Shown here one piece after another: positions 5,935 to 45,218 of a stretch of DNA of 64,000 bases (position 1 is its first letter; every line of letters starts with the position of its first letter). Source of the stretch: a virus. The translations under genes and the position numbers were made by a program. The stretch lies in IMG/VR virus record IMGVR_UViG_3300045141_000181, positions 8,813 through 72,812 of that record; one strand, given 5' to 3'. The notes below the pieces were generated by a model, which ran no database searches, was not told the DNA's origin, and saw nothing but the letters and a program-made list of their open reading frames with translations.

Positions 5935-5936
5935 TT

Positions 5937-16746: not shown

Positions 16747-16813
16747 GTGACTCCTTTCAGTCGCATCGGTCAAGGGCTACTCGGTGCTAGTCACACCGCG
16801 TGGCCCGCCTCTA

Positions 16814-27478: not shown

Positions 27479-27702
27479 CACGAGACGAGAACTTTAGAAG
27501 AGTGCTCAGGGCGAGCAGATTAGCCAGCGAGGGTGTAACGATGGAATCACTTATCGAAGAAAACGACCGGCTGCGGTCTGCGTTGAAATTAATTCAGTTT
27601 ACGGCTGAGCCTCTAGATTCATTAGGCGCTGATTTGATCGCTCATACAGCCAAGCAAGCGCTCGCCGGGGAGAAGGTTCAGGAAGCAACGCCCACCGCAT
27701 AG
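27475..27702 (+). CDS. Hypothetical protein, partial paralogue of upstream gene
   Basis: Shares ENDRLRxAL and KQALAG motifs. Confidence 0.6.
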   Translation: MTRDENFRRVLRASRLASEGVTMESLIEENDRLRSALKLIQFTAEPLDSLGADLIAHTAKQALAGEKVQEATPTA

Positions 27703-30593
27703 CCGCGAATCTCTTCCTCGGCCAGCGCCTTTGGTTTTAATTGCTGTCTGAGTGCTGGCGAGTTCTCTCCAAGCAACGTCGCCCTATCGTCGGTGAAAAC
27801 ATGCAATGTCTGCGCCGCCCGCGAACCACCTACATACACAAGCGACTTGTCCATCAGTGAACGTATGCGCGAATCCCCGGTATCAAGATGCAACAGAACA
27901 TTCTCGGCGGTCGCATACTGCAAGCTGTAGCTCGTCATGGCATAGGAGTAGTCGACATGCGGCATGGCGCGCGCATCCCAGCGCACCTTGCGCCCATCCT
28001 CAAACTCCAAGACTCCTCGCCCTTTAGCATCTAGCGCCTTAATTGTGGTCATCGCGCGGTTGGGTATCCGTTCGTTCTTATTGAGTCGCCACGGTCGCGT
28101 AATCTGGACCCGCTCGCCCACTGCTAGTTTGCGGCGCTCCGCATTGTAGATCTCGACGCCATAAGCCAGCCTGGGGTTGTATGTCTTCTCGACGCCGTAG
28201 ACGTCGATCGTGACCAGATTCTTTGCCGTATCCGTGCGGACCACGGGCGTATAGTCGCCGCTCTTTACCCCCAGCATGGCCACGCCTTTCCCCCACCGGA
28301 TCACGTTACCCGCTTCGTACATCACGGCTAACTTGCGGTCTGCCTCGCGTACATCGCGCGTGCCGACAAGGATTGTGGCCTCGTACCGATCCGCTCCCAA
28401 CTTCTCGACCTTGCGCATCTCAACGCGCGCCGCGGCGTTCAACTCTGCGATCGATCGGTTATCCGGCGCAACCATGAGCGTGTCGTCATGGGCCGCATAC
28501 CACTGCGCCATTGCCTGAAACCGTTTCTTGCGGTCAGGCACTTGCCACACATGGGCCTGCTCATCCAGTTTCTTCAGCCCTTCTGTGATTCGGCCTTCCT
28601 TCCAGTCGTTCACCACTTCGAGCAAAGCCGGATTATTCCGCTGGCGTACGATCTTTTCCACCTGAAACATGGGCACCCCGGCCATCTTCATTTCTTCGAT
28701 GATTCGGCCCGCCTCTACAGATTGGTGTTGTCTCAGGTCGCCCGCCACTACATAGCGATCCTCGGGCCTAATGCTGCGCAGGAAAGTGTAGAACTGCCGT
28801 GTGCCGATCAATGAGCCCTCATCCAGGATGTAGAGGCGCTTATTCTCCGATGGATCAACCGACGCATGATTATGCGCCTGAATTGTCATGGGCTCGATTC
28901 CCAGTGTGCGCAAGTTCTCTGCTGCCTTGGATGCGCTGGCCATTCCGATGACCGTATAGCCCTGCTCTCTGGCTACCTCCGCAATCGGCTCCAAGGATGT
29001 GGTCTTGCCGGTGCCCGCCGCGCCGAATACCAGCATGCCTTGATGCGGAGAGGTTAAGACATTGAACCCTATGCGCATCTGGCCACCATTCGGAATGATG
29101 ACCTTGTCGCCCTTTTTGCGCTCCTGGTAGCGCTCCCTGAATTCATCGGCGGTCAGATCAGGCGCAATCGGGGTTACAGTTCCCTTTCCGGCCAGCATTA
29201 CCTCAATGCTCTGCCGCTCCATCTGCTGCATGGCTTTTGTCGTATAGCGCGCGCCAGGAGCGTTTTCCCGGTAATGCCCTACCCTAACGAACTCCTGCCG
29301 CCCCGCAAACGCTTCCTCAACGTCCTGGAGTCGCAAATGCCCCAATCCGGCTCTTAGGGCATCGCGCATTAGCTCGTAATGGTCATTTACCGCTTGGTGC
29401 TCGAAAAGCCGGTCGCGAGCGTGGTCTATCGAACGGTGCGCCCGTTTGCCCAGCTCGGCGGGGGAAAGTATGTGAACCTGACGCGCCTTCGATTCTGCCA
29501 CGATGCGCTCCGGATGCTGGCCGAACTCTTCCGCCTGCCGTCGGTGTTCGGCTTTTAACGCCCCCGGATCCCATTCCTGTTTTGGCTGGCGCAGCGCTTT
29601 GTTGATAATCTCGTCGGCGGCGGCACCGGTTACGCCGCGGCGCTCTTTCTCGGCTTCAATCTCATTCGTGCGGGCCGAGATGCTTTCCAGGTACTCATCC
29701 GAATAGCCCTTGATGCGTGTGCTGAAGTTTTTCCCGTGCTCCAGTTCGAATCCGCCCGCCCATGCTTGTCGAGCAAGTGACGCCTCGTATACGGCATTCA
29801 TGTAGCTTTGAATGGCGAAGATTTCCCACGTCAGGAGCGCCCTCACCTTCCCATCCGCGTCCGTCATGTTCATAATCACGCAATGTGTGTGTAATTGCGG
29901 ATCCGGCGCACGATTCTCAACGGGGCGAGATGTGTCATGTACGAACCTAGCAACCGCCCAATTGCCGGTAGTGTACGGCAACCGCGCCTTGCCCATTCGG
30001 GTTTGCGCGTAGAGTTCTCCAGCGTCGAGCATTTCCGTCACCGCGCGATTGTGCCAATCCACAATGCGCTTGTCCCCACCGACCAACGCGGACGCACTGT
30101 AGCTTTTGTGGGGCGAAACGACTACATCCCAGGATGCTACATGTAGAGACGGTGCCTTAGCTTCCTTCTCCGGCTTACCAGGCGGCACAACACGGAACTC
30201 GACGGGGTCCAATTCGAGCGGGTCGACTTCGTCCATGAATTCGCGCACGCCTTCCGGCAACTGCGCACGCTCGCCAAGTGCCCATAGATTCCTTACGTGT
30301 TCCTCCCACGCTACATGGTCAGTGAGCCATTTCGGTTCCCATAGTTTTGGATCGGGCGCCGGCAATCGGTGCTTGATTAATTGCTCCTCGGTATGGGGAT
30401 GTTTCCCGGCAGCCAGCAGATCATAGTGCGCCATGTCGATCGGCCCGACCAGTCCCCACTTTTCCGCAAGTTTGCCGTGCCAAGTTCCGGGAGCGTGCGC
30501 GCCTTCCGTGTAATAGTAGGCGTTCTGTTGTTCGCGCGGATAGTCTTTTGTGTGCGCTTCCCCGAGCGGCTTCGATACCTTGGCTACACCCAT
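27678..30593 (-). CDS. trwC: MOBF (TrwC/TraI-like) relaxase-helicase
   Basis: N-terminal YYY, DVVVSPHKS, HDTSR...DPQLHTH (HUH) motifs; helicase GAAGTGKTT, LDEGS, GDLRQHQSVEAG, YAMTSYSLQ, YVGGSRA. Confidence 0.95.
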   Translation of the reverse strand: MGVAKVSKPLGEAHTKDYPREQQNAYYYTEGAHAPGTWHGKLAEKWGLVGPIDMAHYDLLAAGKHPHTEEQLIKHRLPAPDPKLWEPKWLTDHVAWEEHVRNLWALGERAQLPEGVREFMDEVDPLELDPVEFRVVPPGKPEKEAKAPSLHVASWDVVVSPHKSYSASALVGGDKRIVDWHNRAVTEMLDAGELYAQTRMGKARLPYTTGNWAVARFVHDTSRPVENRAPDPQLHTHCVIMNMTDADGKVRALLTWEIFAIQSYMNAVYEASLARQAWAGGFELEHGKNFSTRIKGYSDEYLESISARTNEIEAEKERRGVTGAAADEIINKALRQPKQEWDPGALKAEHRRQAEEFGQHPERIVAESKARQVHILSPAELGKRAHRSIDHARDRLFEHQAVNDHYELMRDALRAGLGHLRLQDVEEAFAGRQEFVRVGHYRENAPGARYTTKAMQQMERQSIEVMLAGKGTVTPIAPDLTADEFRERYQERKKGDKVIIPNGGQMRIGFNVLTSPHQGMLVFGAAGTGKTTSLEPIAEVAREQGYTVIGMASASKAAENLRTLGIEPMTIQAHNHASVDPSENKRLYILDEGSLIGTRQFYTFLRSIRPEDRYVVAGDLRQHQSVEAGRIIEEMKMAGVPMFQVEKIVRQRNNPALLEVVNDWKEGRITEGLKKLDEQAHVWQVPDRKKRFQAMAQWYAAHDDTLMVAPDNRSIAELNAAARVEMRKVEKLGADRYEATILVGTRDVREADRKLAVMYEAGNVIRWGKGVAMLGVKSGDYTPVVRTDTAKNLVTIDVYGVEKTYNPRLAYGVEIYNAERRKLAVGERVQITRPWRLNKNERIPNRAMTTIKALDAKGRGVLEFEDGRKVRWDARAMPHVDYSYAMTSYSLQYATAENVLLHLDTGDSRIRSLMDKSLVYVGGSRAAQTLHVFTDDRATLLGENSPALRQQLKPKALAEEEIRGYAVGVAS

Positions 30594-30596
30594 CCC

Positions 30597-30983
30597 TTAT
30601 CCGTTCAGCCAGCGCATGAATTTACTCTTTTTGCTAGGCGCTTGCTTGACGGGTTTTGGCGTTCGTTTTACGGCGCGCTTTTTCCTGCGAAGTTCTTCGA
30701 TTTCCGCTAAAGCGCGTTGAAGTTCTCGCGTTTGAGCCATGTGCGCATCGGACAGCCCATCTAGCGACGCGTCTGCCTCTTCCCAGAGACATATGGCGCA
30801 TTTGTCCATTCCATCTACACCAACCCAGCACTGCAACGAATGTCCACATGGTCCGATCGCTTTTGCTTCAGCTAGTTCGCTACGCAGCAACGCGACCGTC
30901 TTATCGTAAAGCTCGATCTGGGCACGCTTTGTGGCAACTTCAAATTCTAATTCCGCGAGGGTTGGTTTCCCTGTATCGCTCAT
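30597..30983 (-). CDS. Coiled-coil/Cys hypothetical protein between T4CP and relaxase
   Basis: Start revised to MSDTGKP (GGAGG, ATGA overlap). Confidence 0.6.
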   Translation of the reverse strand: MSDTGKPTLAELEFEVATKRAQIELYDKTVALLRSELAEAKAIGPCGHSLQCWVGVDGMDKCAICLWEEADASLDGLSDAHMAQTRELQRALAEIEELRRKKRAVKRTPKPVKQAPSKKSKFMRWLNG

Positions 30984-32908
30984 ATCCCCTCCGTAAGCGG
31001 ATTCGGATTCGGCGCTTGCTTTGCGGTTTTCTTCGGCAACCGCAACGGTTCCGGCTCCTCGTCGCGCGTCGGGATAGTGATAGGCATTTTGCGCGGGATT
31101 GGCGCAGGCGTGACATCCTCCGCAGCGGGAGTTTGTTCCGGTTCCTCCAGACGAGGAATCAATCTTTCCATGCGGCAAGTTCTCGTCTTGCGCGGTAACG
31201 GTTGTATGTTGATCTTCACTGTTTTTCCTTGCTGCTTTAGCCAGCCCTCGAACAGCGGCACGCCTTGCACTTCGGACCCCATGACCGGGTCAATCGTTGG
31301 AGTCTGATTAGACCAAGAACGCGATCGGTTATGTTTCGCCATCATGTGAGCTGGTCGGCTTTCTGTCATGCGCTCGATTTCTTCTTTACCAATCAGTCCA
31401 GCCATTTCCGCTGCTGCCTTGTCGCTTTCGGTTTGCAGAATGATATTCGTTGCGGCCTGCGATGTGACAGTGACCGCGCCGTTGTCGCCGTAGCGATCCT
31501 TAAGTTGCGCCATGTCGTGAATTCCCAGGATCAGCACGTTACCAGACGCGCGTTGTTTCGTCATGCCGGATTGCAACTGCGGTAGCCGTTGCATACTGGC
31601 TAGTTCGTCCAGAACAAACCACACCTTGGGAAGCTTTACACCGGGAGCGGGCGGCGCTTGTGTACTGAGAATCAGCAGATCGATCACGGCAGATTGCAAA
31701 GGCAATAGCGCCTCTGCGGTGAGTGGATCGCTGGTCATAAAAATCCACCCTGTACGCTTCGCTGCAAATTCCCTGACAGAGAACTGCCTACGACCTTCCG
31801 GAGTTGCTGGCATCATGCGGAGCGCTTTGGATACTTCGCCAAGCGTGGCCCATATTCCGGCTCCCTGTTGCGGCGCTTTCGGATCTGTCGCAACCGCAAA
31901 TTCCGTACCCTTTAGCTTTGGTGCCACTTCTTTTTCTGGATGTGCCAGCCAATAACCAAGAGTGGACATCGGAGCGGGATAGCGAGACATCAGAAACGAA
32001 AAGATTCCTTTGGCGTAATTCCGAAAGAATGGCTGCGAACGCGGCAGTTCTGGCCAAAAGGCAGAACCCCAAGGCGTGGCCTGCGCTTCATCTTTTGCCT
32101 CTGACTCAAACGCATGATATACGCCTCTGGAATCCGTTGGATCATAGATCGAGTCCCCGCGCGACTCGTCGTAAAACTCATCCCTGAATTCGCCCTTTGG
32201 ATCGTAGATGACCGCCGTCTCGCCTCGGGCCTGCACTTGGTGCAAGATCTCCCTAATGAGCGTAGACTTGCCACGACCCGTCGCGCCGAATATTCCGAAG
32301 TGGTACGCAAGAAACTGCTCAGCGATGTGGATCTTTTGCCACGACCGTTTGCCAACTCGCAGTGTCAACCCGACCGGCTTAGGCGACTCCGAATTGAACC
32401 GGCTCCGGCTCACCATGCGCGTGCCGCGCACATGTACGCCCCACTGTCCCATGCGCTGGCGGCGACGGTCATACTCCACGCCCACCGCCACGCACAGAAC
32501 GAACCAACCGCAGAACAACAACCCGAACACTCGGAATGTGCTTAGGATGTCGCCCGCGTACACGTCCTTTTCGAGCCACGTGCGCAACTTGGACGGAACG
32601 GCTTGCACCATTTGCACGCGCTCCTCTGCAACCGGCTGCGTCACCAGGTGCGGCGCGTTTGCCGGACCCGTAACCACCATCGGGTACCACTTCCATCGCT
32701 CCGTCTTGTGCAATCCAGACAGCGCACTTTGCGCAACCGTGCGCACGTACGTTGACAAGTAGTATTGCTGCAAGATTGGTCGATAGTGTACGCCGACTTT
32801 CCACCAGACCGGTACCAACACTAGCGCAAGCAGAATGCCGCACAGTTTGCCGATCGGTGCGCGTATCGGGAACGGTCCCCAGCGGCCAGGCGTTGCGCGC
32901 TCAGACAT
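30980..32908 (-). CDS. trwB: Type IV coupling protein (TrwB/TraD-like)
   Basis: Two N-terminal TM helices, Walker A GATGRGKST, IYDPKGEF, Walker B VLDELASMQRLP, QLKDRYG. Confidence 0.92.
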   Translation of the reverse strand: MSERATPGRWGPFPIRAPIGKLCGILLALVLVPVWWKVGVHYRPILQQYYLSTYVRTVAQSALSGLHKTERWKWYPMVVTGPANAPHLVTQPVAEERVQMVQAVPSKLRTWLEKDVYAGDILSTFRVFGLLFCGWFVLCVAVGVEYDRRRQRMGQWGVHVRGTRMVSRSRFNSESPKPVGLTLRVGKRSWQKIHIAEQFLAYHFGIFGATGRGKSTLIREILHQVQARGETAVIYDPKGEFRDEFYDESRGDSIYDPTDSRGVYHAFESEAKDEAQATPWGSAFWPELPRSQPFFRNYAKGIFSFLMSRYPAPMSTLGYWLAHPEKEVAPKLKGTEFAVATDPKAPQQGAGIWATLGEVSKALRMMPATPEGRRQFSVREFAAKRTGWIFMTSDPLTAEALLPLQSAVIDLLILSTQAPPAPGVKLPKVWFVLDELASMQRLPQLQSGMTKQRASGNVLILGIHDMAQLKDRYGDNGAVTVTSQAATNIILQTESDKAAAEMAGLIGKEEIERMTESRPAHMMAKHNRSRSWSNQTPTIDPVMGSEVQGVPLFEGWLKQQGKTVKINIQPLPRKTRTCRMERLIPRLEEPEQTPAAEDVTPAPIPRKMPITIPTRDEEPEPLRLPKKTAKQAPNPNPLTEGI

Positions 32909-33203
32909 GCTTTTCCTTGTGCCACTCTTGTATGGAATCGGCATCGGCCAGTTCCTGCAACAAAGCACTAGCGCGATATCCAGCGGCACCAAGTAGCGTT
33001 GCTAATTCTTCTACATAGCTGAAGTATGTCTCCAATTCATCTGGATCAAGTGGAGGCTTTCCAGCAATCGCCCTTTGAATTACACTGTGAGCTTTCGCCA
33101 GCGCACAGCACGCCATGATTAACGCAGTGTCTAGCGTCTCCATGTCCAGCGGTTCTTCAGTCACGTTTGCACGCCTCCGTACAGATCTCCCGGTACTCTT
33201 CAT
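32901..33203 (-). CDS. Hypothetical protein
   Basis: Fills the gap between the RHH and T4CP genes; start uncertain. Confidence 0.45.
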   Translation of the reverse strand: MKSTGRSVRRRANVTEEPLDMETLDTALIMACCALAKAHSVIQRAIAGKPPLDPDELETYFSYVEELATLLGAAGYRASALLQELADADSIQEWHKEKHV

Positions 33204-33480
33204 GCGTCATTGGTACGTGTCCGTTATCAATTTCCCATTCCTTGATGAATCTCGTGACACGCAAAAGATCGCCCAACTTTTTACGGATGATGCGAATGCT
33301 TTCCGAATCTTCTGCGCTACCACTGCTTGCTTCACCGTTGCCGACAATCTCGCGCAATATCAGATGCCGAATATACGAACTTTCGTCCATGCCCCGACCG
33401 CTCGCCAAACCACGAAACAAAGCGGCCTGTTCCTCGCTCAGCTTCGTCCCAACCGACACCGTTTTTGATCCGTTTTTCAT
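33157..33480 (-). CDS. Ribbon-helix-helix relaxosome accessory protein (TrwA/NikA-like)
   Basis: TVSVGTKLSEEQAALFRGLASGRGMDESSYIRHLIL RHH pattern; first gene after the candidate oriT. Confidence 0.75.
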   Translation of the reverse strand: MKNGSKTVSVGTKLSEEQAALFRGLASGRGMDESSYIRHLILREIVGNGEASSGSAEDSESIRIIRKKLGDLLRVTRFIKEWEIDNGHVPMTHEEYREICTEACKRD

Positions 33481-33590
33481 GTGTATTCTACTTAACCCCA
33501 GTAACCCCAGTAACCGATCTGAATTCCAGAGACGTCATCTCAGGGGGGAGTAAACCCGTGTCGCCTTTTTGGTTTACCGTTGGCTCTATC
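33481..33590 (+). other. oriT: Candidate origin of transfer (oriT), putative nic between 33587 and 33588
   Basis: Direct repeats TAACCCCAG x2.5 (33493-33515), inverted repeat GTAAACC/GGTTTAC (33550-33577), then CGTTGGCTCT^AT, resembling the R388 nic GTATTGTCT^AT. Confidence 0.65.
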
Positions 33591-33840
33591 ACGTTATGGG
33601 TTGCTTGGCTAGTTCTTCTTGGCATTCACACCAATAGGCTGCAAGGCATACCGCCATTTCCACTTCAGACAGAAGTTCGCCACCATCCCTAGCCATCATC
33701 TGCGCAGCCATCCGTCTAGCAACACGCTCTTGCACTGGGTTGGTTAGGCTTAGCTCTCGCAACGCCCTTTCGCACCTAGCCTGTATGTTTGGGCGCATGG
33801 CAAGCCTTATTTTTGCCGCCATGCCAATGACCCACCTCAT
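33589..33840 (-). CDS. Hypothetical protein
   Basis: GGAGG RBS upstream. Confidence 0.55.
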   Translation of the reverse strand: MRWVIGMAAKIRLAMRPNIQARCERALRELSLTNPVQERVARRMAAQMMARDGGELLSEVEMAVCLAAYWCECQEELAKQPIT

Positions 33841-33883
33841 AGCCGATATCCCTCCGAAACCGCCATAACCTCGCGCCCAACAC

Positions 33884-34099
33884 TCATGGAACTATCTCTC
33901 CGTCTATCCAGTGACCCAGCCATTTGCCTAAGCTACCGTCAGGATTTTGTTCAAAGACAATGGGTGCCGACGGCAGCATTTCCGCCAAGTCGTACCACGC
34001 CAGAAGGCACTCAAGAAGCGATTGCCCGATATAACTTTCAGTATTCGATAACCCACAAACGAAGTACATCCACCGAAAGAGCATCTGGCGCAGATTCAT
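33884..34099 (-). CDS. Hypothetical protein
   Basis: ATGA-coupled. Confidence 0.5.
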   Translation of the reverse strand: MNLRQMLFRWMYFVCGLSNTESYIGQSLLECLLAWYDLAEMLPSAPIVFEQNPDGSLGKWLGHWIDGEIVP

Positions 34100-34323
34100 A
34101 TCCCATATCCCTCAGAAATCTCCTTCACTTCTCTCTGCGCTGCGACTTCTCTATCGATTGCTGCATTCCTAATCGGAGTAGCGCCAATGCGTAATTTATC
34201 CAGGAATGATAGGTAATCCTTGCGTCCGTATTCATCACCCATCCACGGCGGGCCGCCGTCATATTTGTCAAGATACGCCCTCCTGACAATCCGCACCTCG
34301 TCTTCAATCTGATCACTTTTCAT
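34096..34323 (-). CDS. Hypothetical protein
   Basis: ATGA-coupled. Confidence 0.55.
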   Translation of the reverse strand: MKSDQIEDEVRIVRRAYLDKYDGGPPWMGDEYGRKDYLSFLDKLRIGATPIRNAAIDREVAAQREVKEISEGYGI

Positions 34324-35312
34324 AGCCGATACCCTTCTGATTGAACAAACTTTTCTTCGTTTTTTATGCCCTCCTTTTTCATATGGGTAACGTATTTGTC
34401 AAGCATTTCTACGGCGGTAATGCCCGGCTGCTCGCGTCCCATTTCGTTCATTCGTCTACTTACCTCTTCCGGCGTATGCCGCTCTCTCATTAGCCAGTAC
34501 AGATTATCTTGTGCTGACTCTTCCAGAATTTGTTTTTCTACTTGCATATAGCCCCCACTTCCAGAAACCGCCATAACCTCGCGCTCTTGCTGCGCGTACA
34601 CATGCGCCTGCCCCGTGTTTACCGTGTAGCCCTTTTCGCGCGCTTCGACGATCATTTCGGCGAGCTTTCCGAGCGCTTTGTTGTGCGCTTCCTGCGCCTT
34701 CTCCGGGCTGTCCGTAATGTACGTTTGGCTGAGATCTATGGTCCGATTCCCAACTGACAATTGATTCGAGAAGTCGCGCGCCATGGCCGATACAGGTAGC
34801 TCGATGCGCATGTGCTCAACGTCAACGAGTTGGATCTTTCCGTTGACTTCTTTCTCCATCTTGCCGTCGGCATAATTGAGCAGAATCTCTGCCATCTTTA
34901 GGCGCGATTCATGCTCTGGCACCCAGTTCGAAATGGCTTGCTGCGCACCTTGGTGGTAGCGATATTCGACGAAGTTTATCGCACCCTTTTCTGTCGTATC
35001 GAACTGCAATGCAGCCGCTGTCGCGAATGGCATAATGCGGCGTTGGTGGTCATTCAATAGCTCGTCCAACTGCTGCATATTGCGCGGGAACGGTTCAGCC
35101 TGGAGGCGCTTCATTTCGGCCTCGTAGCCAAGCTTTTCCGGGTCAGCCTTAATCAACTGATGCTCTATTTCCTTGATTCGTCCGTACCCTTTGTCGAGAT
35201 TCAGCATGCGCTCGTTGGGTGCCAAATCGTTCACATGGCTGAGCTGATCGATGATTAAGGCCCGCTCAGCGGCGAGCCTTTCGCGAACGCTTTCCTGCGC
35301 CTGAGCTTCCAT
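34320..35312 (-). CDS. Hypothetical 330-aa helical protein in transfer region
   Basis: Long open frame with no recognised motif. Confidence 0.75.
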   Translation of the reverse strand: MEAQAQESVRERLAAERALIIDQLSHVNDLAPNERMLNLDKGYGRIKEIEHQLIKADPEKLGYEAEMKRLQAEPFPRNMQQLDELLNDHQRRIMPFATAAALQFDTTEKGAINFVEYRYHQGAQQAISNWVPEHESRLKMAEILLNYADGKMEKEVNGKIQLVDVEHMRIELPVSAMARDFSNQLSVGNRTIDLSQTYITDSPEKAQEAHNKALGKLAEMIVEAREKGYTVNTGQAHVYAQQEREVMAVSGSGGYMQVEKQILEESAQDNLYWLMRERHTPEEVSRRMNEMGREQPGITAVEMLDKYVTHMKKEGIKNEEKFVQSEGYRL

Positions 35313-35981: not shown

Positions 35982-36524
35982 TTATCTCCAGTTCGCCGTA
36001 AATACCGGCTTCGCATAAAACGCAATCTGTTGCGGTGCAACGACTCCAAAATAACGAGAGTCGAAACTGTCAGGACTGAAGTCGCTAATGGCCCAATAGC
36101 CGTAGTGATATCTTCCAAAGTCGTAGTGTGTGAGGGGCTTTCCGGCCAACGATACTTTCTTGGGTGCGGTGTTCGGCAGCAGCTTTCCGTCTACATAAAA
36201 GCCTTCTGCGGCCAACTTGATCGGATTGTCCATAGTGGCCTCGTATACCGGCTTAAGAATCGGCTGCAGGCCAGTGTTGGGGCACTCCCCAGGGCGCAGG
36301 TCGATGCCAGCTGCAACTGCCGGTGCGAGTTGTTCCATAGACAGGCAGATCGCGGCATATCGCGCTGTGCTGGTGGTCCGGTAATACATGCCTACAGGGA
36401 CAGATTTGGAGAGATTCAGCCGCAGATTTGAAGCGCGCAGGGTGTCGCCAATCACGAAGTATGCCGGGAATCCTACAGCCACAACCAGAGCGGCAATTGT
36501 TACGGTCTTGATGTTAATTTTCAT
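35982..36524 (-). CDS. traF: Pilin-maturation S26 peptidase TraF
   Basis: NLSKSVPVGMY (catalytic Ser), LKPV (catalytic Lys), SFDSRYFG. Confidence 0.92.
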   Translation of the reverse strand: MKINIKTVTIAALVVAVGFPAYFVIGDTLRASNLRLNLSKSVPVGMYYRTTSTARYAAICLSMEQLAPAVAAGIDLRPGECPNTGLQPILKPVYEATMDNPIKLAAEGFYVDGKLLPNTAPKKVSLAGKPLTHYDFGRYHYGYWAISDFSPDSFDSRYFGVVAPQQIAFYAKPVFTANWR

Positions 36525-37813
36525 TTGATCTCCGTAGGCTGATAAGGACCGGGGAATACGATATTTTTCTTAACGAAGATCTCGAAATTGTCGCCCGGGC
36601 GGATCTTGATAGTTGGCTGAATATTTAGATTCTTGCTTGTGATCTGCTGCCCGACCGTAGCCGCTTGCTGGGCGATTGCGGCACTGGCTATCTGCGCGTT
36701 TGACGGATAGGCCAATACACCGCCAGCGCCGCCGTTTGCATGATTCTGCGAAATCTGGAGACCAGCCGCAAACAAAGAACTGAGAGCCACTCCGCCAATT
36801 AAACGTTTATAGTGGTTATCCACTTGATCTTTTAACCCGGCTGAACCATCGGCGGAATGGCCCGGAAATCTAGCCAGATCGACATACGATCCGTCGGGAA
36901 ACCGCAGATACGTCCATGCGATCTGAACCCTGTTCTGGCCATACGACACTGACGAATTGTATTCGCCAGCGAGAAGCGATCCTGCGGGAATCATGACGTA
37001 CCTGTGTGTCGGCGTATCGTATACGTCGCGCTTCACCATTGCGATAAGATCACCCGGCAAATCAGACACAACCTTGTTGGGCAGACCGGCCGGAATAACC
37101 TCTCCCTTTTCGACAATCCAGCGGCTCAAGGGCGCGATGCGTGTTGTCTTCATGTAGTCGTCGGTGTCGGCAGGTTCAGAGTTAAACTTGCGCTTTTGCT
37201 CCTGTCCATTAGGATCATCTTCCATGGCTTGCTGGTTAGCTTGAGGCGCACCGGAAGGCCCCACCTGACCAGCCAGTGAGCGGATGCGATCCACCTCTGC
37301 TTGGTAAGGATCTTGCGGCGCCACTTGCGGCTGTGACTGCGCCTTGCTGGTTGCTCCCGTTGGCGCTTCCAGTGCTGCTTGATGGCGCTCGTATTGATGC
37401 GCTAATTCCTGCGCCTTTATGGTTTCCGCTGGGCTTTGCCTTCCGGCTTCCGCATCATACGGTGGCACATACGAAGGCGCATAATACGGAGTCGGTGCTG
37501 GCTGATTGGCTGGTATATGCGCGACGACGGGCGTGACTGTTGGACTGGGCTCAGCGAGCGTACTGGCCGGTTGACTGTTTGGCCCGTCCGTCTGTCCACC
37601 CCGGACTTGGGGGCGGTTACTCACTGCCGCATCTCCAGCCGCAACATGCTCTTGTGCGGCGTGCTTTCGCTCCTCTTTCTGTTTGATGCGTACGTGAAAG
37701 CCCCAGATCACCACCACAACCAAGAGGATTATCAGGGCTACGCCAGTAGCCAGTAACCGGCCCGATACCGTGCGCTGGATCATCGGAATGCGCCCCCGAA
37801 GATTGATCGCCAT
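36521..37813 (-). CDS. trbI: T4SS core protein TrbI/VirB10
   Basis: N-terminal TM, Pro-rich linker, SDLPG, IPAGSLLAGEY, GSAGLKDQVDNHY, NIQPTIKIRPG. Confidence 0.95.
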   Translation of the reverse strand: MAINLRGRIPMIQRTVSGRLLATGVALIILLVVVVIWGFHVRIKQKEERKHAAQEHVAAGDAAVSNRPQVRGGQTDGPNSQPASTLAEPSPTVTPVVAHIPANQPAPTPYYAPSYVPPYDAEAGRQSPAETIKAQELAHQYERHQAALEAPTGATSKAQSQPQVAPQDPYQAEVDRIRSLAGQVGPSGAPQANQQAMEDDPNGQEQKRKFNSEPADTDDYMKTTRIAPLSRWIVEKGEVIPAGLPNKVVSDLPGDLIAMVKRDVYDTPTHRYVMIPAGSLLAGEYNSSVSYGQNRVQIAWTYLRFPDGSYVDLARFPGHSADGSAGLKDQVDNHYKRLIGGVALSSLFAAGLQISQNHANGGAGGVLAYPSNAQIASAAIAQQAATVGQQITSKNLNIQPTIKIRPGDNFEIFVKKNIVFPGPYQPTEIK

Positions 37814-38808
37814 TAGTTGGCCGCTCCCTTCAATCCGTTGTTTTTGATGCAGGCCCGTTGCTGCTTTTTACCTACGCCTTCCAGTAGGCAGGCATTTTCA
37901 AAGAGAGCATCTACAATGAGTTCGTTACCCGCTTCCCAGTGCATATTTGCCGGAATGGTCCCCTGCGCATCTTTGATCTCGATTACCGGCAAGCCACGAT
38001 AGCGGGCCTCGTCCGACATCTTTATGTGCGTGTGGATTCCGTCATCGCCAATCTGAATCGGCTTCATGAATTGTGCATCTTTGCCGTGCAGTTCGACCGT
38101 ATAATCCCAGTTCTTAATTGGGCCTACCGTATTCAACTGGGCGAGCTTTTCGGCCTCTAACTTTTGCCGTTCTGCGGCTTCAACCTGCGCCGCCGCTTCT
38201 GCTTTCTTTCGGGCCGCTTCCTCGTCTGGGTAGGAGAAGGCAACCCGCGCCATATGCTCGGCCGATGTGGAAATTAGGCGGATGTAGTAGGACCGGCGAT
38301 CTGTGCCGATCGTCAGTGTCGTATCGAGTCCCACCTGGGTAGGTTTAACCACCACATAAACGAACTGATTGGAGCCGGATCCAGCGGTGCGGCTAGCAAT
38401 CTGCCAGCGCGTATCTCCCCAATCCAGTGCGTCAGCGGTTAGCTTCTCCCCCGGCTCCAGATCTACTTCGCACACCTGGAGAATGGCGCATACTACGGTT
38501 GGCAGGATCTGGCCGTACCTGAAAAGCACTCGGCCACTCTTTGCTTCTGGCAGGGGGCCGTTATTGAGCCATTCTCTTGATAGATTTAGAGCCGTGCGCG
38601 CGGCTGGCGTCAAGACCAGTTGCCGCTCAACCGTTACCGTGTCCAGCGTTGCCTCGGGCGCGGGTTTCTTTTTTCGGCTCTTGGCGTCGGGCGCGTCCTC
38701 AACGATACGCTTGGCTTGCAGATAAACATCTGGCCCCGGCATCGGAGGCGCGGGCTGTTGTGCTACGCCTAACAGCGAACACGCTAAGAATAGAATTGAT
38801 AGCTTCAT
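37813..38808 (-). CDS. trbG: T4SS core protein TrbG/VirB9
   Basis: Signal peptide; FRYGQILPTVVCA...LEPGE...GDTRW...VVKP...TDRRSY; start revised to MKLSILF. Confidence 0.92.
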   Translation of the reverse strand: MKLSILFLACSLLGVAQQPAPPMPGPDVYLQAKRIVEDAPDAKSRKKKPAPEATLDTVTVERQLVLTPAARTALNLSREWLNNGPLPEAKSGRVLFRYGQILPTVVCAILQVCEVDLEPGEKLTADALDWGDTRWQIASRTAGSGSNQFVYVVVKPTQVGLDTTLTIGTDRRSYYIRLISTSAEHMARVAFSYPDEEAARKKAEAAAQVEAAERQKLEAEKLAQLNTVGPIKNWDYTVELHGKDAQFMKPIQIGDDGIHTHIKMSDEARYRGLPVIEIKDAQGTIPANMHWEAGNELIVDALFENACLLEGVGKKQQRACIKNNGLKGAAN

Positions 38809-38819
38809 GTTTCCTTCCC

Positions 38820-39533
38820 TTACTGAACCGGCTCGGCTTGCAACTCGGTAATGAGAATGCCTAGCGGGTTTTCTTCGCGGGCCTTCTCGGCCGTGGGGAT
38901 GCGAATCGAGTAGACGATACGCGCTCGCCATGACTTCTGAGCCGTCACTTCGCCGCTGGTAGATGTTGTCGTCTCGGTCCACCAGATCCCATACGTGTGT
39001 TGGCCTTCGACATCGTAGGTCTTGTACTGCACCGTTACGAGGTGCCCGTCGTCGGCAGCCTTGATTGGATCGTGCTCTTGATACCACGTCGCCACAACCC
39101 GCTTGGCTTGGCTGGCATCGCCGAGATAAGAGAAGCTCCTATCCCATGCGGTTGCTTGCGCGGTGCGGTCGCTCGTTACCGTGCGCCATGACTCAATGAA
39201 CCGCTTGAGAGATTGGACCTTAACCGCGTCCCATGTTGCAGCATCCATATCCGCAGGCTTGGTCGGCCCGGAATAGGAGACTTGATTAGCCGCATCTCGC
39301 TGTAGCACATATACGTCGGTCTTTGACAGCGTAGCCACATGCCAGAGGGCGGCGACCAGTGCGGCAACGATCCCTATCAGCCCGAAAGCCGCCAGCATCC
39401 AGTTGCGCCTACCGGCCGCAAGGTTGCTCCATGACTCTTCCCATGCGCGTGCGGCGAGCTTTGACCGAATCGCCGGGTCCTTATCGGCAGACTCTGCCTT
39501 GGTTCTTTGAAGTGTTTCTAGAGTGTGTGCCAT
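38820..39533 (-). CDS. trbF: T4SS inner-membrane protein TrbF/VirB8
   Basis: RRNW + TM helix, FIESWRTVTSD, ENPLGI. Confidence 0.93.
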   Translation of the reverse strand: MAHTLETLQRTKAESADKDPAIRSKLAARAWEESWSNLAAGRRNWMLAAFGLIGIVAALVAALWHVATLSKTDVYVLQRDAANQVSYSGPTKPADMDAATWDAVKVQSLKRFIESWRTVTSDRTAQATAWDRSFSYLGDASQAKRVVATWYQEHDPIKAADDGHLVTVQYKTYDVEGQHTYGIWWTETTTSTSGEVTAQKSWRARIVYSIRIPTAEKAREENPLGILITELQAEPVQ

Positions 39534-39541
39534 ATTTTTCC

Positions 39542-40759
39542 CTAATGATTGAATCCGTTGAATCTTGGCGTGCTACCGCCCGCGCCGGAATGCGGCATGC
39601 GGGCCGCTGAATTGACCGCAACCTGCGCCATGCTGACAGCGCCGCGCGCCATAGCTCCTGATGCTGCCGAGCGACCGCCACCAGGGGACACTTGCGGTGT
39701 TTCATTACCGCCCGATGGTGAGCCACCCGGCGCTACTCCATTAACAGAGTTCGCTGCACTGGCAGCACCAGAGACCGCACCACCTACCGCTGCCGTAGCG
39801 CCGCCGCTGGCGAACCCTGCCGCCACCATTGCCCCGGACACTGCGGCGCCTATTGCTGGCGCGACAAAGCTCAACATGTCGCTATGGCTAAGGTTTGGAG
39901 AGCCACCCAGTAGACCGGCAATGTGCGACGGCAGAAACCAGCAGACCGATGCGTACAGAACTGCACCGGCCGCGATCAGATAGGAAGCCTGCACACCGGC
40001 CTGAGTGAATGGGATGGCTTGCGCTGCCGCTATCCAGGAATTCGTCATCATCCAGCCCGCACCGATGAGCAAATACATCATCATCAGGCGGATTCCTGCC
40101 CCGAACGAATACGCGAAGTATCGCTCAACATACGAACTGGTATAGCCAGATCCGCCGAACCCCAGGAACAAGACACCCGCACCAAGCGCGACGAACGTTT
40201 GTACTTTGGCGATTATGAATTGTATGGTGATGACCAAAAAGCACGCGATGATCACCGTCCCGGCAAACACAAGCGCATGCGCTGTGGCGATATCGGCCAT
40301 CAAGCCGTGCTTGAATGCTTCCCATAGCAGCTTGCCGAATATCTTGAAGCCCTGGAGAAGCACTACTGACGGAGCTATAGAGGGCACCCCGCTTGCAGCT
40401 TTGCCGATCTGCACAAAGCTGTTGATAATCGCGCCCATCCATGTGCCAGCATTCATCAGTAGGGCCAAAAACATTCCAATCATCAGAATTTTGTTGGTAG
40501 CAGTGAAGATTACGCTTCGGATATCCTGCCCATTCCATGTACGCCACAGCGTCCAACCCAGAAAGGCCATTTCCAGGCCTGCCAACGCCCAAAAAATCTC
40601 AAATGCGAATGGAGAGATGGACGTGAACCATACAGTGGATACTTGCTCAATTGCCTGAGTAAGCGAGGACGGATCAGAGATGACCGGCGCGGACGGAGGG
40701 CCGAATTGCCCAAACAATACTGGCGCTAATAACAGGCCGAGCAAAAGGCGTTTATTCAT
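39542..40759 (-). CDS. trbL: T4SS polytopic protein TrbL/VirB6
   Basis: Multiple TM helices, FLGFGGS, LPSHIAGLLGG, G/A-rich tail. Confidence 0.92.
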   Translation of the reverse strand: MNKRLLLGLLLAPVLFGQFGPPSAPVISDPSSLTQAIEQVSTVWFTSISPFAFEIFWALAGLEMAFLGWTLWRTWNGQDIRSVIFTATNKILMIGMFLALLMNAGTWMGAIINSFVQIGKAASGVPSIAPSVVLLQGFKIFGKLLWEAFKHGLMADIATAHALVFAGTVIIACFLVITIQFIIAKVQTFVALGAGVLFLGFGGSGYTSSYVERYFAYSFGAGIRLMMMYLLIGAGWMMTNSWIAAAQAIPFTQAGVQASYLIAAGAVLYASVCWFLPSHIAGLLGGSPNLSHSDMLSFVAPAIGAAVSGAMVAAGFASGGATAAVGGAVSGAASAANSVNGVAPGGSPSGGNETPQVSPGGGRSAASGAMARGAVSMAQVAVNSAARMPHSGAGGSTPRFNGFNH

Positions 40760-40764
40760 TGGAG

Positions 40765-41085
40765 TTACCACGCCCGCGATCTGTCGGCGAGCGGTTCAGG
40801 TGCCGGGGTAGCCATCATTGCGGCGCGGCAGACGGTGCCTTCAGAACTGCGCCCCCAACTTGCTGTAGCGTTCAATTGCCGCTGCTGGCATGCCGTAGAA
40901 ATCTCCGTTGCCAGCGTGGGACGATTGGCGAACCACGTTCCCAGACTCAAGGCGTCAAAGGTGGACAGATCCCCAGCACCCGCCGCCTCAACCCGGCGCA
41001 CGATTGCCGATTGCTGAGCGTTCGGGTCATAGCAACCGATCAAGGAAATTATTCCCAGCATGGCTACACCTAGCCGACTAAACAT
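40765..41085 (-). CDS. Lipoprotein, candidate TrbK-like entry exclusion protein
   Basis: Lipobox LIGC; lies between trbJ and trbL; C-terminus ADRSRAW mirrors TrbJ ADTRAW. Confidence 0.65.
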   Translation of the reverse strand: MFSRLGVAMLGIISLIGCYDPNAQQSAIVRRVEAAGAGDLSTFDALSLGTWFANRPTLATEISTACQQRQLNATASWGRSSEGTVCRAAMMATPAPEPLADRSRAW

Positions 41086-41353
41086 GCGTGGCCTCCGTAT
41101 CAGTGCAGGCGAGTTTGGTCTCCGATATGACCGGTGGTGCTCCGCAAAACATGTATACTAAGCTCACCACCACGACCTGCATAACGGCAAACGCATTGCC
41201 GAATAGACGCACATCGGCTTCATAAGCGGCGGGCAAATCCCCAAACTTCAGAACCGCCCAGCACACACATAATGGCCATATTGCTACAACCAGAAGCCCT
41301 ATCACGTGCCTATATCTAGAGACAAATGATGCCGCTATCTTTATAGTTTTCAT
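41078..41353 (-). CDS. Small two-TM membrane protein inserted in trb operon
   Basis: Two hydrophobic segments. Confidence 0.6.
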   Translation of the reverse strand: MKTIKIAASFVSRYRHVIGLLVVAIWPLCVCWAVLKFGDLPAAYEADVRLFGNAFAVMQVVVVSLVYMFCGAPPVISETKLACTDTEATHV

Positions 41354-41359
41354 ATTGCC

Positions 41360-42085
41360 TTACCATGCCCTCGTATCTGCTGAAATGCTGCTCGGGTCGC
41401 CAAACCCAGAAGTGGCCGCCTGAATCTGTGCCTGCTGGGTATTAATCTGCTGTGCCGAAATAGCGGCCTTGGCTGCCATGTCAGCAGCAAAGAGTGCGCG
41501 CAGCTTCATGAGTTGAGCGACCGTTTCTGTGCCTACCGAAACGCCGAGCTGCAGACTTTGATTGCGTCCCTGCGGAGTAACCATTAGCGCTTGAATCCGC
41601 GCCATGAATTGCTGATCGTTGGCTAAGCTGTTACCCTGCATTCCGGCCGTATTGGCCACGCCCTGAATGGTCTTTAGTGCGGTATCTGACCAAGTGTTGT
41701 ATGCCGTAGCGTAAGTTTGCGTGCCTGTAGAAGCAAACGGTACGTAGACCGCGCGGAATTGATTGTCCATCTGCGCAAAGTCAAGCGCTAAGCCGCGCGA
41801 CTGCTGCAAGATACTTCCAAAACTTGAAATATCCGCCAAGATGTTCGTGCTCGGATGTTGCGCCAGATCAACCCCTTCTCGCACCATGATTTGAGCCATT
41901 TGCACGGCATTTAACGCGGTTTGGGCCTCCTTCACGTAATTTGATAGAAGCTGGGCGTGGTTGAGAAGCTGGGTAATTTCTGATGCTGCTAGTGGGTTCC
42001 AGAACTGCGCCCGCGCTTCCTCTGCCGGAACAAGCAAGAGCGCTGCCGGAAGAATCACAAGTGGGAAAGTGGATAGTTTACGCAT
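41360..42085 (-). CDS. trbJ: TrbJ/VirB5 minor pilin
   Basis: Signal peptide, ASEITQLLN, QLMKLRAL, C-terminal Trp. Confidence 0.88.
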   Translation of the reverse strand: MRKLSTFPLVILPAALLLVPAEEARAQFWNPLAASEITQLLNHAQLLSNYVKEAQTALNAVQMAQIMVREGVDLAQHPSTNILADISSFGSILQQSRGLALDFAQMDNQFRAVYVPFASTGTQTYATAYNTWSDTALKTIQGVANTAGMQGNSLANDQQFMARIQALMVTPQGRNQSLQLGVSVGTETVAQLMKLRALFAADMAAKAAISAQQINTQQAQIQAATSGFGDPSSISADTRAW

Positions 42086-44570
42086 ACTGGGCCGTCTCCT
42101 TTTCGGCCAGATTAGAAATCTGCGAATAGTAGTCTGCCCATTCGTTGAGTCCTCGCGAGCGAAGCCAAGTGGCTACCCAGCCGTGCCCATTGCGAGCGAT
42201 CATATTGTCAACGCGAGCGCGATCCGCATCAGTGGATGCCGCCACAAACGACAATGTGAGCGCACCCAATTCCAGCGCGATAAGGCGCTTCCCGTCGGGC
42301 GACATCACGTAGTAGTCGGACTTCAGCTCTGCATGTGCGATCTTTTCACGGTCCAGCGAATTGCAGCCCATCGCCTCGTACGCCGCCGCGCCCTCCAGAA
42401 TTGCTTGCGGATTAGGCAGGCACACTTTCGTTAAGCATTGATCCAGAACCGCCGATTTCAGCGGAGAAGCGAAGACCTTGGACAATTCCTGAAGAACCAG
42501 CCAAACCGACATGTTGAGCTTTCGCCCCTCAAGCAGGAATTCCTCGAAGCATTTAGCGGCCATCGGATGCGATAGCGCCTCTCGGAATTCATCAACCGTA
42601 ACGAGAGTCGGAACGTCCGAGCGAAGGCGCTTGCGGATCTTGTGGAAGATATAAAACAGGGCTCCATTCATGGTCTTTTTGTCGAGACGATACAGTTCAT
42701 CCATCTCGAACACGACCATGCGGCTTAGCTCTAAATTATCCTTTTCCCCGTCAAGGATGCCACCGCAGTAGAACTTCAGCGCTTCCTTTACCTCAATCGA
42801 AGCCACGGCCATCCTAAAATCCGTAAGGGAGCGCCCGCCCTTGCTGCCCGCGAGCAATTGCAGCGCTTCCGCTACATCATTGCGGATATCTGGAGTTACC
42901 GTTAAGCCGTTCTGATCCAGAAGAAGCTCGATCCACTGAGATGCCCAATCTAGATCCCGCTTTGTCTCTAATTGCGCCAGCGGACAAAGCAGCGTCTCGC
43001 CTGAATCGGGGCTGATATCTATGAAGTCGCCACCCATCGCCTTCGTGAGCGTATAAAGGGCGCGCTTCTTATCGAATGCATATACCTGCGCGCCTGGGTA
43101 GCGGAACCACTGCGCGATAGAGAGCCCCAGCCATGTGGTCTTACCGCTGCCGGTCGGGCCGGTTATCAATTGATGGCCTACGTCTTTAACTAATGGATGG
43201 AAGCGATACGCGCTGCCACCACTCGTAACCGCATGAAAGAGTGGTGGAGACTTATATGGAAAGTATGGCGACGGGCAAAACTCCAAGCCACGGAATGGTG
43301 CCGACAATGGCATCATATGCACTAAGTTTTCCGTAGTCACGATAAACGTGCGCGGGTCCTTGTACTGCTGTCCTGGAAATGTAGCCAGCCATGCCGCTAC
43401 CGCGTTGGTGGTCTCGACCCGACAAGAAAATCCGCAATTCTGGCGAATAACCCTTGTGATGGCCTGGGCCGCTTCGCGCAAACGCTCCACGCTTGACTCC
43501 ATAACTATGACCTTGCCCGAATACCGCACCGAGACCTCGCGTCCATGCTCTGCGAGATTCATGGCGCGCAACGCATCGCCCTCCAACTCAGCGGCTACCG
43601 TATCCGCAAGCTCCGGGGATGCATTCTGCATCAATTTGCTCTTGATGGAGGTCTTTTTGCTTTTCCACTTTCCCTTGTTCGCCTCATGCGCTTTCGTGGC
43701 TTCCTGCGCGTCCATGAGAGCACCCTGCTGGCAGAAGCGGAAATCATAAGGGATGGAGTCCAGTTCGCGCATAATACCGGCAAAGCTTAACTGTGGGAAT
43801 CCATCTATCGCGATGACACAGATGCGCTTTCCGGGGACCAGTTCATTCATTGGATCGCCCAGCTCCGGCTCCCCGCCACCCGTGAAATCATCCGCGGCCA
43901 AATATTGATTCAGGTGCGCCGGAACGTCTGGGATAGCGAATGGGAATTCTTCTCCACAGATACACCAGCGCACGTATTCCAGAAGCTCATCGCAGACCAT
44001 AGTGGCCTCGCCTACGCGCTTCTCATAACTCTTGAGACGGCGCACGCCGGGAAGATTCGCCCGCAGAAGTGAATCGATCTCGGATACCTTCTTTCCAAAT
44101 ACTGCGAGGTCTTTTTCATCAGATCCGCCGCCCTGCGTTGCGTCGAATAGAAACCGGGCGGCTTTCGCTGATCCTCCCGCGCCAGCCTCATACGAGACAG
44201 CCATAAAATAGCGGCTGAGTCTCGTTCCGCTTTCGTCGGCCAGCATATAGCGATTGCGGCGCTCATGGTCGATCATGTGCGAGACCGCATCGGGCCAGTC
44301 GGCACTTGGTGAATACTCCGACTTCTGGGAACGGATTAAATCGCAATGAATCGTCCAGCCCTTCCCCATGCGCAACTTACTAGACATGCGCTTGGCGATC
44401 TGCCAGCACTCCTCAATGGGCAGTGCGTCCATATCCGGACCCCAGAATTCCCATGCGGCCACAAGCACATTCGTAGATAGAAGCAGCACGCCATCGTCCG
44501 CAAGCGCGAAGTAGTCAATCAGGTCTGACAGACCATTAGCGTTTTTTCTGGCTTCAGCCTGAATAAACAT
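42078..44570 (-). CDS. trbE: T4SS ATPase TrbE/VirB4
   Basis: DVGHQLITGPTGSGKTT, AFDK, VDEF, GRKLN, LPNP motifs. Confidence 0.96.
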   Translation of the reverse strand: MFIQAEARKNANGLSDLIDYFALADDGVLLLSTNVLVAAWEFWGPDMDALPIEECWQIAKRMSSKLRMGKGWTIHCDLIRSQKSEYSPSADWPDAVSHMIDHERRNRYMLADESGTRLSRYFMAVSYEAGAGGSAKAARFLFDATQGGGSDEKDLAVFGKKVSEIDSLLRANLPGVRRLKSYEKRVGEATMVCDELLEYVRWCICGEEFPFAIPDVPAHLNQYLAADDFTGGGEPELGDPMNELVPGKRICVIAIDGFPQLSFAGIMRELDSIPYDFRFCQQGALMDAQEATKAHEANKGKWKSKKTSIKSKLMQNASPELADTVAAELEGDALRAMNLAEHGREVSVRYSGKVIVMESSVERLREAAQAITRVIRQNCGFSCRVETTNAVAAWLATFPGQQYKDPRTFIVTTENLVHMMPLSAPFRGLEFCPSPYFPYKSPPLFHAVTSGGSAYRFHPLVKDVGHQLITGPTGSGKTTWLGLSIAQWFRYPGAQVYAFDKKRALYTLTKAMGGDFIDISPDSGETLLCPLAQLETKRDLDWASQWIELLLDQNGLTVTPDIRNDVAEALQLLAGSKGGRSLTDFRMAVASIEVKEALKFYCGGILDGEKDNLELSRMVVFEMDELYRLDKKTMNGALFYIFHKIRKRLRSDVPTLVTVDEFREALSHPMAAKCFEEFLLEGRKLNMSVWLVLQELSKVFASPLKSAVLDQCLTKVCLPNPQAILEGAAAYEAMGCNSLDREKIAHAELKSDYYVMSPDGKRLIALELGALTLSFVAASTDADRARVDNMIARNGHGWVATWLRSRGLNEWADYYSQISNLAEKETAQYA

Positions 44571-44572
44571 TC

Positions 44573-44875
44573 TTAAGTTCTCCAGCGCTTCGCCCGGATC
44601 GGCTTAGCCGTCCAGAATCCTCGGTTGTAGCGTTGCGAATTGTGGTGGACCTCGATGAGGCGTGGGTCATCCTTAGCCATTTCTTGGAGCATTTTGCGGA
44701 GAAAAAAGAAAAGGCCAATCGACAGCCCAATCCCGTAACGATTGGGCACCGACAGCACCACCACCACGCACAATACCCCTACAAGCACTATCGCGGCCGG
44801 TTCGCACCCAACAAGTAAGTGTGTCCGATTAGACGACTCGTGGAACTTTGCGCAAAAGCTAGGGTGAATATCCAT
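44573..44875 (-). CDS. trbD: TrbD/VirB3
   Basis: SSNRTHLLVGCE + two TM helices + MAKDDP. Confidence 0.9.
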   Translation of the reverse strand: MDIHPSFCAKFHESSNRTHLLVGCEPAAIVLVGVLCVVVVLSVPNRYGIGLSIGLFFFLRKMLQEMAKDDPRLIEVHHNSQRYNRGFWTAKPIRAKRWRT

Positions 44876-44887
44876 TGGCCTTTTGAG

Positions 44888-45205: not shown

Positions 45206-45218
45206 CTCTAATTTCCTT

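Follow-up and report, generated by a model that had tools for sequence, protein, structure and literature searches.

The transfer origin of plasmid R388 is the closest described counterpart of the locus examined here. In excerpts of two reports, nt 12–16 (the proximal arm of a hairpin) and nt 17–25 of its nic region are critical and a purine is needed at position 26 (PMC4176350), and the corresponding oligonucleotide carries the tail GTATTGTCT/AT after the arm GGTGC (PMC4814116, its Table 1). The ribbon–helix–helix (RHH) protein TrwA acts as both accessory protein and repressor, and the minimal origin comprises 17 bp (excerpts of PMC4853378 and PMC3264647). We have analysed a comparable region in a stretch of 64,000 nt (positions 8,813 to 72,812 of the IMG/VR virus record IMGVR_UViG_3300045141_000181), referred to throughout as the window. 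The minus strand of the window encodes a predicted RHH protein, a type IV coupling protein (T4CP) and a MOBF relaxase-helicase. Upstream of these lies a gap of 108 bp (33481–33588), extending from the start of the 107-aa RHH open reading frame (ORF) to the stop of an 83-aa ORF, both on the minus strand. This gap upstream of the conjugation genes is very probably an origin of transfer (oriT). An oriT in 33481–33588 had been proposed in a sequence-only reading of the window, and it is well supported because the features listed in that reading are present and genes for a NikA/TrwA-like RHH protein, a T4CP and a TrwC-type relaxase adjoin the gap, which takes the conserved place expected of an oriT upstream of such an operon. 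As read from the sequence, the order is trwA–trwB–trwC-like, with the RHH and T4CP genes between the origin and the relaxase gene; an RHH protein, a T4CP and a two-domain MOBF relaxase likewise adjoin the R388 origin (excerpt of PMC4853378).

Three other described systems share part of this arrangement. The relaxase domain and helicase of F TraI are homologous to those of the window protein (structure 5n8o, E 4.5e-28), and the origin core described below, which is G-rich and contains GGGGTG, may be a further parallel. To our knowledge the F plasmid has no RHH–T4CP–relaxase trio at its origin. The small proteins encoded at the RHH position in related loci recall NikA of plasmid R64, since the NikA-like family PF21983 is matched by 18 of the 19 syntenic proteins scanned (best E 9.6e-11). 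The partner of R64 NikA is a MOBP relaxase, whereas that in the window is MOBF. Phage-plasmids and tandems of phages with integrative and conjugative elements (excerpt of PMC13651849) resemble the record in its combination of phage packaging and structural genes, an integrase, DnaB and conjugation genes. Phage-plasmids are described as transferring as phages (excerpt of PMC12282955). A full-text literature search listed no papers on origins of transfer in Acidobacteria.

We give an about even chance to the following interpretation: the gap is the oriT of an acidobacterial type of MOBF module, where RHH proteins would bind half-sites, the relaxase would nick the minus strand near 33529 and the relaxase operon would be the first to enter. 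The comparison behind it starts from the relaxase, which has about 240 relatives at E ≤1e-10, the nearest named ones being from Acidobacteriota. An alignment of 27 of these (A1) led to 80 genome loci, 5 viral-contig loci and at least 80 metagenome loci. All but three of the 80 genome loci (77) are acidobacterial, as named in the record titles. The metagenome matches listed are mostly distant (33–36% identity), and L087 is the only close one among them. The T4CP gene adjoins that of the relaxase in most related loci, with the RHH gene upstream of it.

Most of the family has a conserved core ahead of the RHH gene. Among 117 related loci for which the sequence before the relaxase extends to at least 3300 nt, 95 contain the sequence GGTGGCGT[ACG]TC (two mismatches or fewer) with an abutting small stem, placed 2.0–4.0 kb before the relaxase start; the strict detector used required a stem of 3 or 4 bp and a loop of 3–5 nt abutting the tail. 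The core is located on the strand opposite to the genes in 86 loci, on the gene strand in eight and on both in one, and it is absent from 22; three of the eight gene-strand matches (L112, L014 and L037) look like chance. Alignment of the 71 distinct opposite-strand sequences (A4) reveals a common layout. Accessory repeats are followed by hairpin 1 (CCCN-NNN-N'GGG), then by a 10-nt tail (for example GTGGAGTGTC) and, after 8–14 variable nucleotides, by hairpin 2. The tail follows the pattern [AG]TG[AG][CA]GT[ACG]T[CA] across the family, and the next base is a purine in 68 of the 71 sequences. Both hairpins are supported by covariation: 94.2% of positions are paired, and there are 51 double-sided changes against 7.6 in shuffled alignments, none of 500 shuffles reaching as high a value. 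Hairpin 1 has its loop closed by U-A in 51 sequences, by G-C in five, by A-U in four and by C-G in two. Hairpin 2 reads GCGNAGC, with a G-N-A loop, in 61 of the 71 and exclusively on the tail-bearing strand (A4 columns 41–57, 8–14 nt 3′ of the tail; an example is L095:3954–4012).

The family core is probably the nic region, because its layout of stem, some 10 conserved nucleotides and purine follows the logic of R388, in which 9 nt and a purine come after the arm (excerpt of PMC4176350). By the same analogy the nicked strand would be that on which the hairpin precedes the tail. The spacing between hairpin 1 and the tail is fixed, as is the sequence, while the spacer to hairpin 2 varies in both length and sequence; this fits a proximal arm and tail read on the motif strand. 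Part of the core of the distant clade, GGTGGCGTAT, also resembles GGTGCGTAT of the R388 oligonucleotide (excerpt of PMC4814116). The family differs from R388 in that its tail lacks TTGTCT/ATAG, its hairpin is made up of a 4-bp stem and a 3-nt loop, and most relatives carry the second GCGNAGC hairpin 3′ of the tail. Further differences are that the RHH protein is of NikA type, with no significant match of its own for the window copy, and that the clade of the window has its core in inverted orientation with respect to the genes.

This inversion is seen in the nearest relatives. Five loci with usable upstream DNA (L002, L003, L004, L005 and L087) encode relaxases 48–58% identical to that of the window, and all five have a gene-strand core flanked on either side by accessory repeats. 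Three closer relaxases, P0005 (75%), P0006 (65%) and P0007 (62%), are represented by protein only and lie outside the DNA comparison, as do the JGI contigs of P0011, P0015, P0018, P0022 and P0024 outside the locus set. A FastTree phylogeny of full-length relaxases places the window together with L002, L003, L005 and L087 in one clade, with local support of 99%, and the branches next to this clade carry the core on the opposite strand. The tree comprises 42 of 112 full-length relaxases, chosen by hand, and leaves out L004 and seven others that have no complete ORF. A tree based upon the first 470 residues was dropped in favour of it; that tree is misleading because several relatives have a primase-like insertion in this region.

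The core of the close clade is a stem of the type CCAC-ACC-GTGG followed directly by [AG]TGGCGTCT[CA]. Following the minus strand of the window in the 5′ to 3′ direction, there is an inverted repeat of GTAAAC type, then a weak stem, the decanucleotide ATGACGTCTC, a 13-nt spacer, direct repeats and finally the start of the RHH gene. L003 has the same order, including an inverted repeat of its own half-site with 7-bp arms at the same place. The succession of repeats, core, spacer, repeats and RHH start is collinear in the window, L003, L005, L087 and L004. Measured by eye, the spacer between core and repeats is 13 nt in L003 and L005, 14 in L087, 15 in L004 and 6 in L002. The direct repeats of the window read GGTTAC-TGG-GGTTAC-TGG-GGTTAA on the minus strand and line up with blocks of repeats located 3′ of the core in L003, L005 and L087.

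Direct comparison points to the same strand. A MAFFT alignment (A2) of the window minus strand with the five relatives contains an invariant G.TG.CGTCT block. In local alignment of the gap minus strand against 500 shuffles, L002 (p 0.016) and L087 (p 0.044) are matched above expectation, and L003, L004 and L005 are not (p 0.25, 0.13 and 0.22). In the plus orientation none of the five is matched (L002 0.97, L003 0.99, L004 0.41, L005 0.22, L087 0.94). The decanucleotide ATGACGTCTC conforms exactly to the tail pattern of the family and is located 49 nt upstream of the RHH start. The 72.8-kb record contains five exact matches to this pattern, of which two represent one and the same terminal-repeat copy, and only that at 33529–33538 has a stem directly 5′ to it. 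A covariance model (R1, from alignment A5) was built from the five close relatives with the window excluded. Run over both strands with filters off, its best match in the window is 33514–33554 on the minus strand (11.3 bits, E 0.22), and nothing in the remaining 9 kb of the record is better (9.8 bits). The score is weak by itself, and its weight comes from the top match falling inside the expected 108-bp gap.

If this site is functional, the transfer reaction would proceed as follows. RHH dimers would occupy the half-sites GGTTAC, GGTTTAC and GGTAAAC on both sides of the core (33493–33515 and 33550–33577). The relaxase would recognize the short stem together with the 10-nt single-stranded tail, running from 33538 to 33529 on the minus strand, and would nick that strand at the 3′ end of the tail or no more than a few bases away, at about 33526–33531. 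With relaxase on its 5′ end, the minus strand would then be transferred towards lower coordinates. The repeats would enter first, followed by the genes for the RHH protein, T4CP and relaxase, then the phage module, with the type IV secretion system (T4SS) genes and the inverted repeat last. This direction is the reverse of that proposed in the sequence-only reading. Most family members have the core in the opposite orientation, so that the transfer genes would enter last.

Several observations weigh against this interpretation. The R1 score of the window site is weak, as its E value over the whole window indicates, and 70 positions in the window score at least as high as the site with a simple matrix from the five relatives. 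Nor is the site picked out by a position matrix from the distant clade, whose top match, at 49142–49168 (7.3 bits), is attributed to chance. With a stem of only 3 bp and a loop of 6 nt (CTC-CCCCCT-GAG), the site does not pass the strict detector that 95 of the 117 loci satisfy, and this stem is poorer than that of any relative. The base after the tail is T and not a purine. The close relatives are five in number, and the tree leaves the branching of the window inside its clade unsettled. We know of no mapped nic site for this relaxase family, so the identity of the core as nic region and the choice of strand depend on the analogy with R388. Entry of the DNA transfer and replication (Dtr) genes first is unusual in plasmid biology. 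Lastly, the site at 33578–33589 on the plus strand, at which the sequence-only reading had placed nic, is closer to R388 in its geometry, with A following a 7-bp arm and 10 nt. Judged by location, it is about as unlikely to arise by chance, as one of three such sites in 64 kb.

A contig of 190 nt from run X2 covers 33387–33576 and contains seven changes, all within 33519–33525, where CTGAATT is exchanged as a block for GACCTAC; the other 183 bases are identical, and the core and both types of repeat are kept. The pattern fits a free spacer 3′ of the core, a comparison that has little power. A second run (X4) covers 33490–33661 with no difference and is uninformative, and two more (X3 and X5) have no coverage of the gap.

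The second-best R1 match is at 16091–16133 on the plus strand (9.9 bits, E 0.69), where CCAC...TGGGTGGTGTC resembles the core; it falls where the terminase and HNH genes overlap and is probably a chance match. An exact close-clade core, TGGCGTCTC, is found at 55642–55656 on the minus strand inside the ERF gene, has no adjacent stem and is likewise judged to be chance.

The core might be the nic region with the cut falling on its plus strand, or elsewhere in the gap, which would leave strand and direction open; this we consider unlikely. It draws on the dependence of the strand choice on analogy, namely the position of the hairpin 5′ of nic in R388 and the occurrence of GCGNAGC on the motif strand in most of the A4 sequences. 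That GCGNAGC-type hairpin 3′ of the tail is absent from the window and from all five close relatives. Against a cut on the other strand stands the constancy of the hairpin-to-tail segment next to the variable spacer of the second hairpin, which fits an arm and tail on the motif strand.

A further alternative, to which we attach a rather low probability, is that the gap is no more than the operator and promoter of the RHH–T4CP–relaxase operon, with the functional oriT elsewhere or lost. The degenerate core of the window would suit such a role. RHH accessory proteins can also be repressors, as TrwA is of trwABC (excerpt of PMC3264647). There is also a precedent for an oriT-like module at another place, in L002, upstream of a virB11-like gene. 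This locus contains two origin-like modules in opposite orientation (L002:2560–2760 and L002:4351–4409): the first is a complete core of the distant type with a GCGTAGC hairpin, very like that of L010, and the second is a core of the close type upstream of the RHH gene. The operator explanation is opposed by the lack of any better core in the 72.8-kb record and by the presence of the core upstream of the RHH gene in 95 of the 117 relatives. In addition, a scan of 33300–33900 for promoters and terminators found none, including none of sigma-70 type, though the promoters of the host may differ.

The elements on which the sequence-only reading was built are all in place, each within one base of where it had put them. 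The tandem direct repeats TAACCCCAG occupy 33493–33501 and 33502–33510, and as tandem 9-mers they exceed chance. The inverted repeat GTAAACC-N14-GGTTTAC has arms at 33550–33556 and 33571–33577 that are 100% complementary. It is followed on the plus strand by CGTTGGCTCTAT (33578–33589), placing TCT^AT at 33587/33588. The coordinates, Pfam matches and family alignment bear out the RHH, T4CP and relaxase genes on the minus strand. Both kinds of repeat are plausible RHH-binding sites, and the inverted repeat is here read as such and not as the relaxase hairpin. The unit GTTTACCG of its right arm recurs in the repeats that flank the core in L087 and L005, as direct repeats in L087, and such units thus appear to behave as sites for the accessory protein because they are repeated on the flanks of the L087 core. 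Taken alone the 7-bp inverted repeat is no more than expected by chance, being one of five with at least 7 bp in 800 bp. Folding of the region as single-stranded DNA, on either strand, is no better than that of dinucleotide shuffles (z +0.71, +0.43, +0.17 and −1.01).

Conservation of the TCTAT site was examined as a stem of at least 6 bp followed by TCTAT on the strand opposite to the genes in the upstream region, with controls placed inside the relaxase genes. It was found in one of 117 loci against two of 117 controls; the hairpin–TCTAT motif is therefore unconserved beside homologous relaxase modules, an outcome that the sequence-only reading had itself named as speaking against its nick site. 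The single locus is L023, where the site is about 650 bp from the core and unrelated in sequence. The site at 33578–33589 is absent from the 13 R1 matches with E ≤10. Compared with the R388 tail, CGTTGGCTCT/AT has TCT/AT and two more of the nine bases in common, and the arm is unrelated. In its favour, the arrangement of an arm, 10 nt and A at +1 is R388-like, R388 having 9 nt and a purine (excerpts of PMC4176350 and PMC4814116). A stem of at least 7 bp followed by TCTAT within 5–12 nt is found at just three places on the two strands of the window (33585 plus, 23145 minus and 1877 minus). The order of gene, repeats, hairpin and nick opposite to the genes is also that of 86 of the 117 loci. That 33550–33577 is the relaxase hairpin, with a plus-strand nick at 33587/33588, rightward transfer and the relaxase genes entering last, is nevertheless improbable, since the site is not conserved, the gap in plus orientation has no similarity to the cores of the relatives, and the five nearest of these have theirs on the gene strand. 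Provided that the record is circular, the entire molecule would, as in the sequence-only reading, be the substrate for a cut on either strand.

The coordinates of the features in the gap, of the genes beside it and of other genes in the window are collected in Table 1. The window forms part of a 72,812-bp record with direct terminal repeats of 127 bp, and nearly all its long ORFs are on the minus strand.

Table 1. Positions of features in the gap, the flanking genes and the remainder of the window
Feature	Position	Strand	Remarks
Direct repeats, TAACCCCAG twice plus a partial third copy TAACC (33511–33515)	33493–33515		Likely RHH half-sites
Spacer between core and repeats, 13 nt	33516–33528	−	Block 33519–33525 exchanged in a contig of another sample (run X2)
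Candidate relaxase tail and nic region, ATGACGTCTC	33529–33538	−	Nick predicted within a few bases of 33529
Weak stem-loop CTC-CCCCCT-GAG	33539–33550	−	Abuts the tail on its 5′ side; relatives have a stronger hairpin (4-bp stem, 3-nt loop)
Inverted repeat GTAAACC-N14-GGTTTAC	33550–33577		Read as a pair of accessory-protein half-sites, not as a relaxase hairpin
nic motif of the sequence-only reading, CGTTGGCTCT^AT	33578–33589	+	Present; not conserved among relatives
83-aa ORF, function unassigned	33589–33840	−	Ends at the edge of the gap; from ORF list
Predicted RHH relaxosome accessory protein (NikA/TrwA-like), 107 aa	33157–33480	−	Family alignment and profile
100-aa ORF, function unassigned	32901–33203	−	Overlaps the RHH gene at its end and the T4CP gene at its annotated start
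Type IV coupling protein, 670 aa	30980–32992	−	Pfam TrwB_AAD_bind 5.6e-67, TraG-D_C 2.6e-17
MOBF relaxase-helicase, 971 aa	27678–30593	−	Pfam TrwC 1.8e-63, AAA_30 5.9e-38
VirB-type T4SS	36521–46301		Homologues of VirB2, 3, 4, 6, 8, 9, 10 and 11; VirB2 and VirB3 below Pfam cut-offs
Tail-spike-like gene	3736–6126		The record has tail-spike-like proteins
Major head protein	8010–9281		Weak match
Portal	11088–13460		Weak match
TerL (large terminase)	14151–16139		
HNH endonuclease genes (four)	7234–7935, 16057–16773, 20309–20884, 50873–51373		One abuts the terminase gene, one is fused to an AP2 domain
DnaB	47805–49130		
Integrase	51606–52679		
ERF recombinase	54511–55794		

The relaxase aligns with the structure of the TrwC relaxase domain (1omh) with E 7.6e-28, including the HxDxx...HxH motif, where HDTSR...PQLHTHCVIMN in the window protein corresponds to HETSR...PQLHTHAVILN. 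Tyrosine 18 and a YYY run near residue 26 are aligned in a weak local match only. Searched alone, the 107-aa protein stays below the Pfam threshold (NikA-like, E 0.1). In alignment A3 it can be aligned to the small proteins encoded at the corresponding place in relatives, and the profile of this family matches the RHH protein structure 1x93 with E 2.9e-4. The 83-aa ORF next to the gap has no match to a Pfam or PHROG family. The same is true of the 100-aa ORF, which in addition has no tblastn match in the first 85 related loci.

The record contains phage-like genes together with those for conjugation. Relaxases of this kind are scarce in phages: among 50,697 deposited phage records there are five matches in all, of which one is in the relaxase domain and none extends over 80% of the protein. 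By contrast, the terminase has 537 phage matches. Tentatively, the record might be a single replicon that serves as a tailed phage and at the same time as a self-transmissible conjugative element, packaged with its own terminase and portal and transferred as single-stranded DNA through its own VirB-type T4SS, with an inverted nic module and the relaxase operon leading; we regard this as possible though doubtful. Were the origin to work, one genome would have two routes of horizontal spread. The origin itself would be of MOBF kind with a family-specific core, inverted in the clade of the window, as the sequences suggest. The family core provides a testable oriT consensus for a large group of MOBF elements from soil Acidobacteriota. 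It further indicates that a nic module can be inverted with respect to the transfer genes within one relaxase clade, which changes the genes that enter first. There is also a caution, in that a textbook resemblance to R388 appears, from the comparative evidence, to have pointed to the wrong strand.

A search of a plasmid database with the DNA of 27600–34400 gave no match, and a single-protein scan of viral contigs found nothing. Scanning viral contigs with GATGRCGTCTCNNGAAT returned 62 loci, and these matches are attributed to chance because none of them carries an RHH, T4CP or relaxase gene.

At about 1300 aa, many of the closest relaxases exceed that of the window in size and have Toprim or primase Pfam domains (P0005, P0008, P0009 and P0012–P0019; L002, L003, L004, L026, L037 and L087). 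The tblastn match in L026 is interrupted by about 945 nt after query residue 103, and an extra domain is therefore placed inside the N-terminal relaxase region. The relaxase of the window has no Toprim or primase domain.

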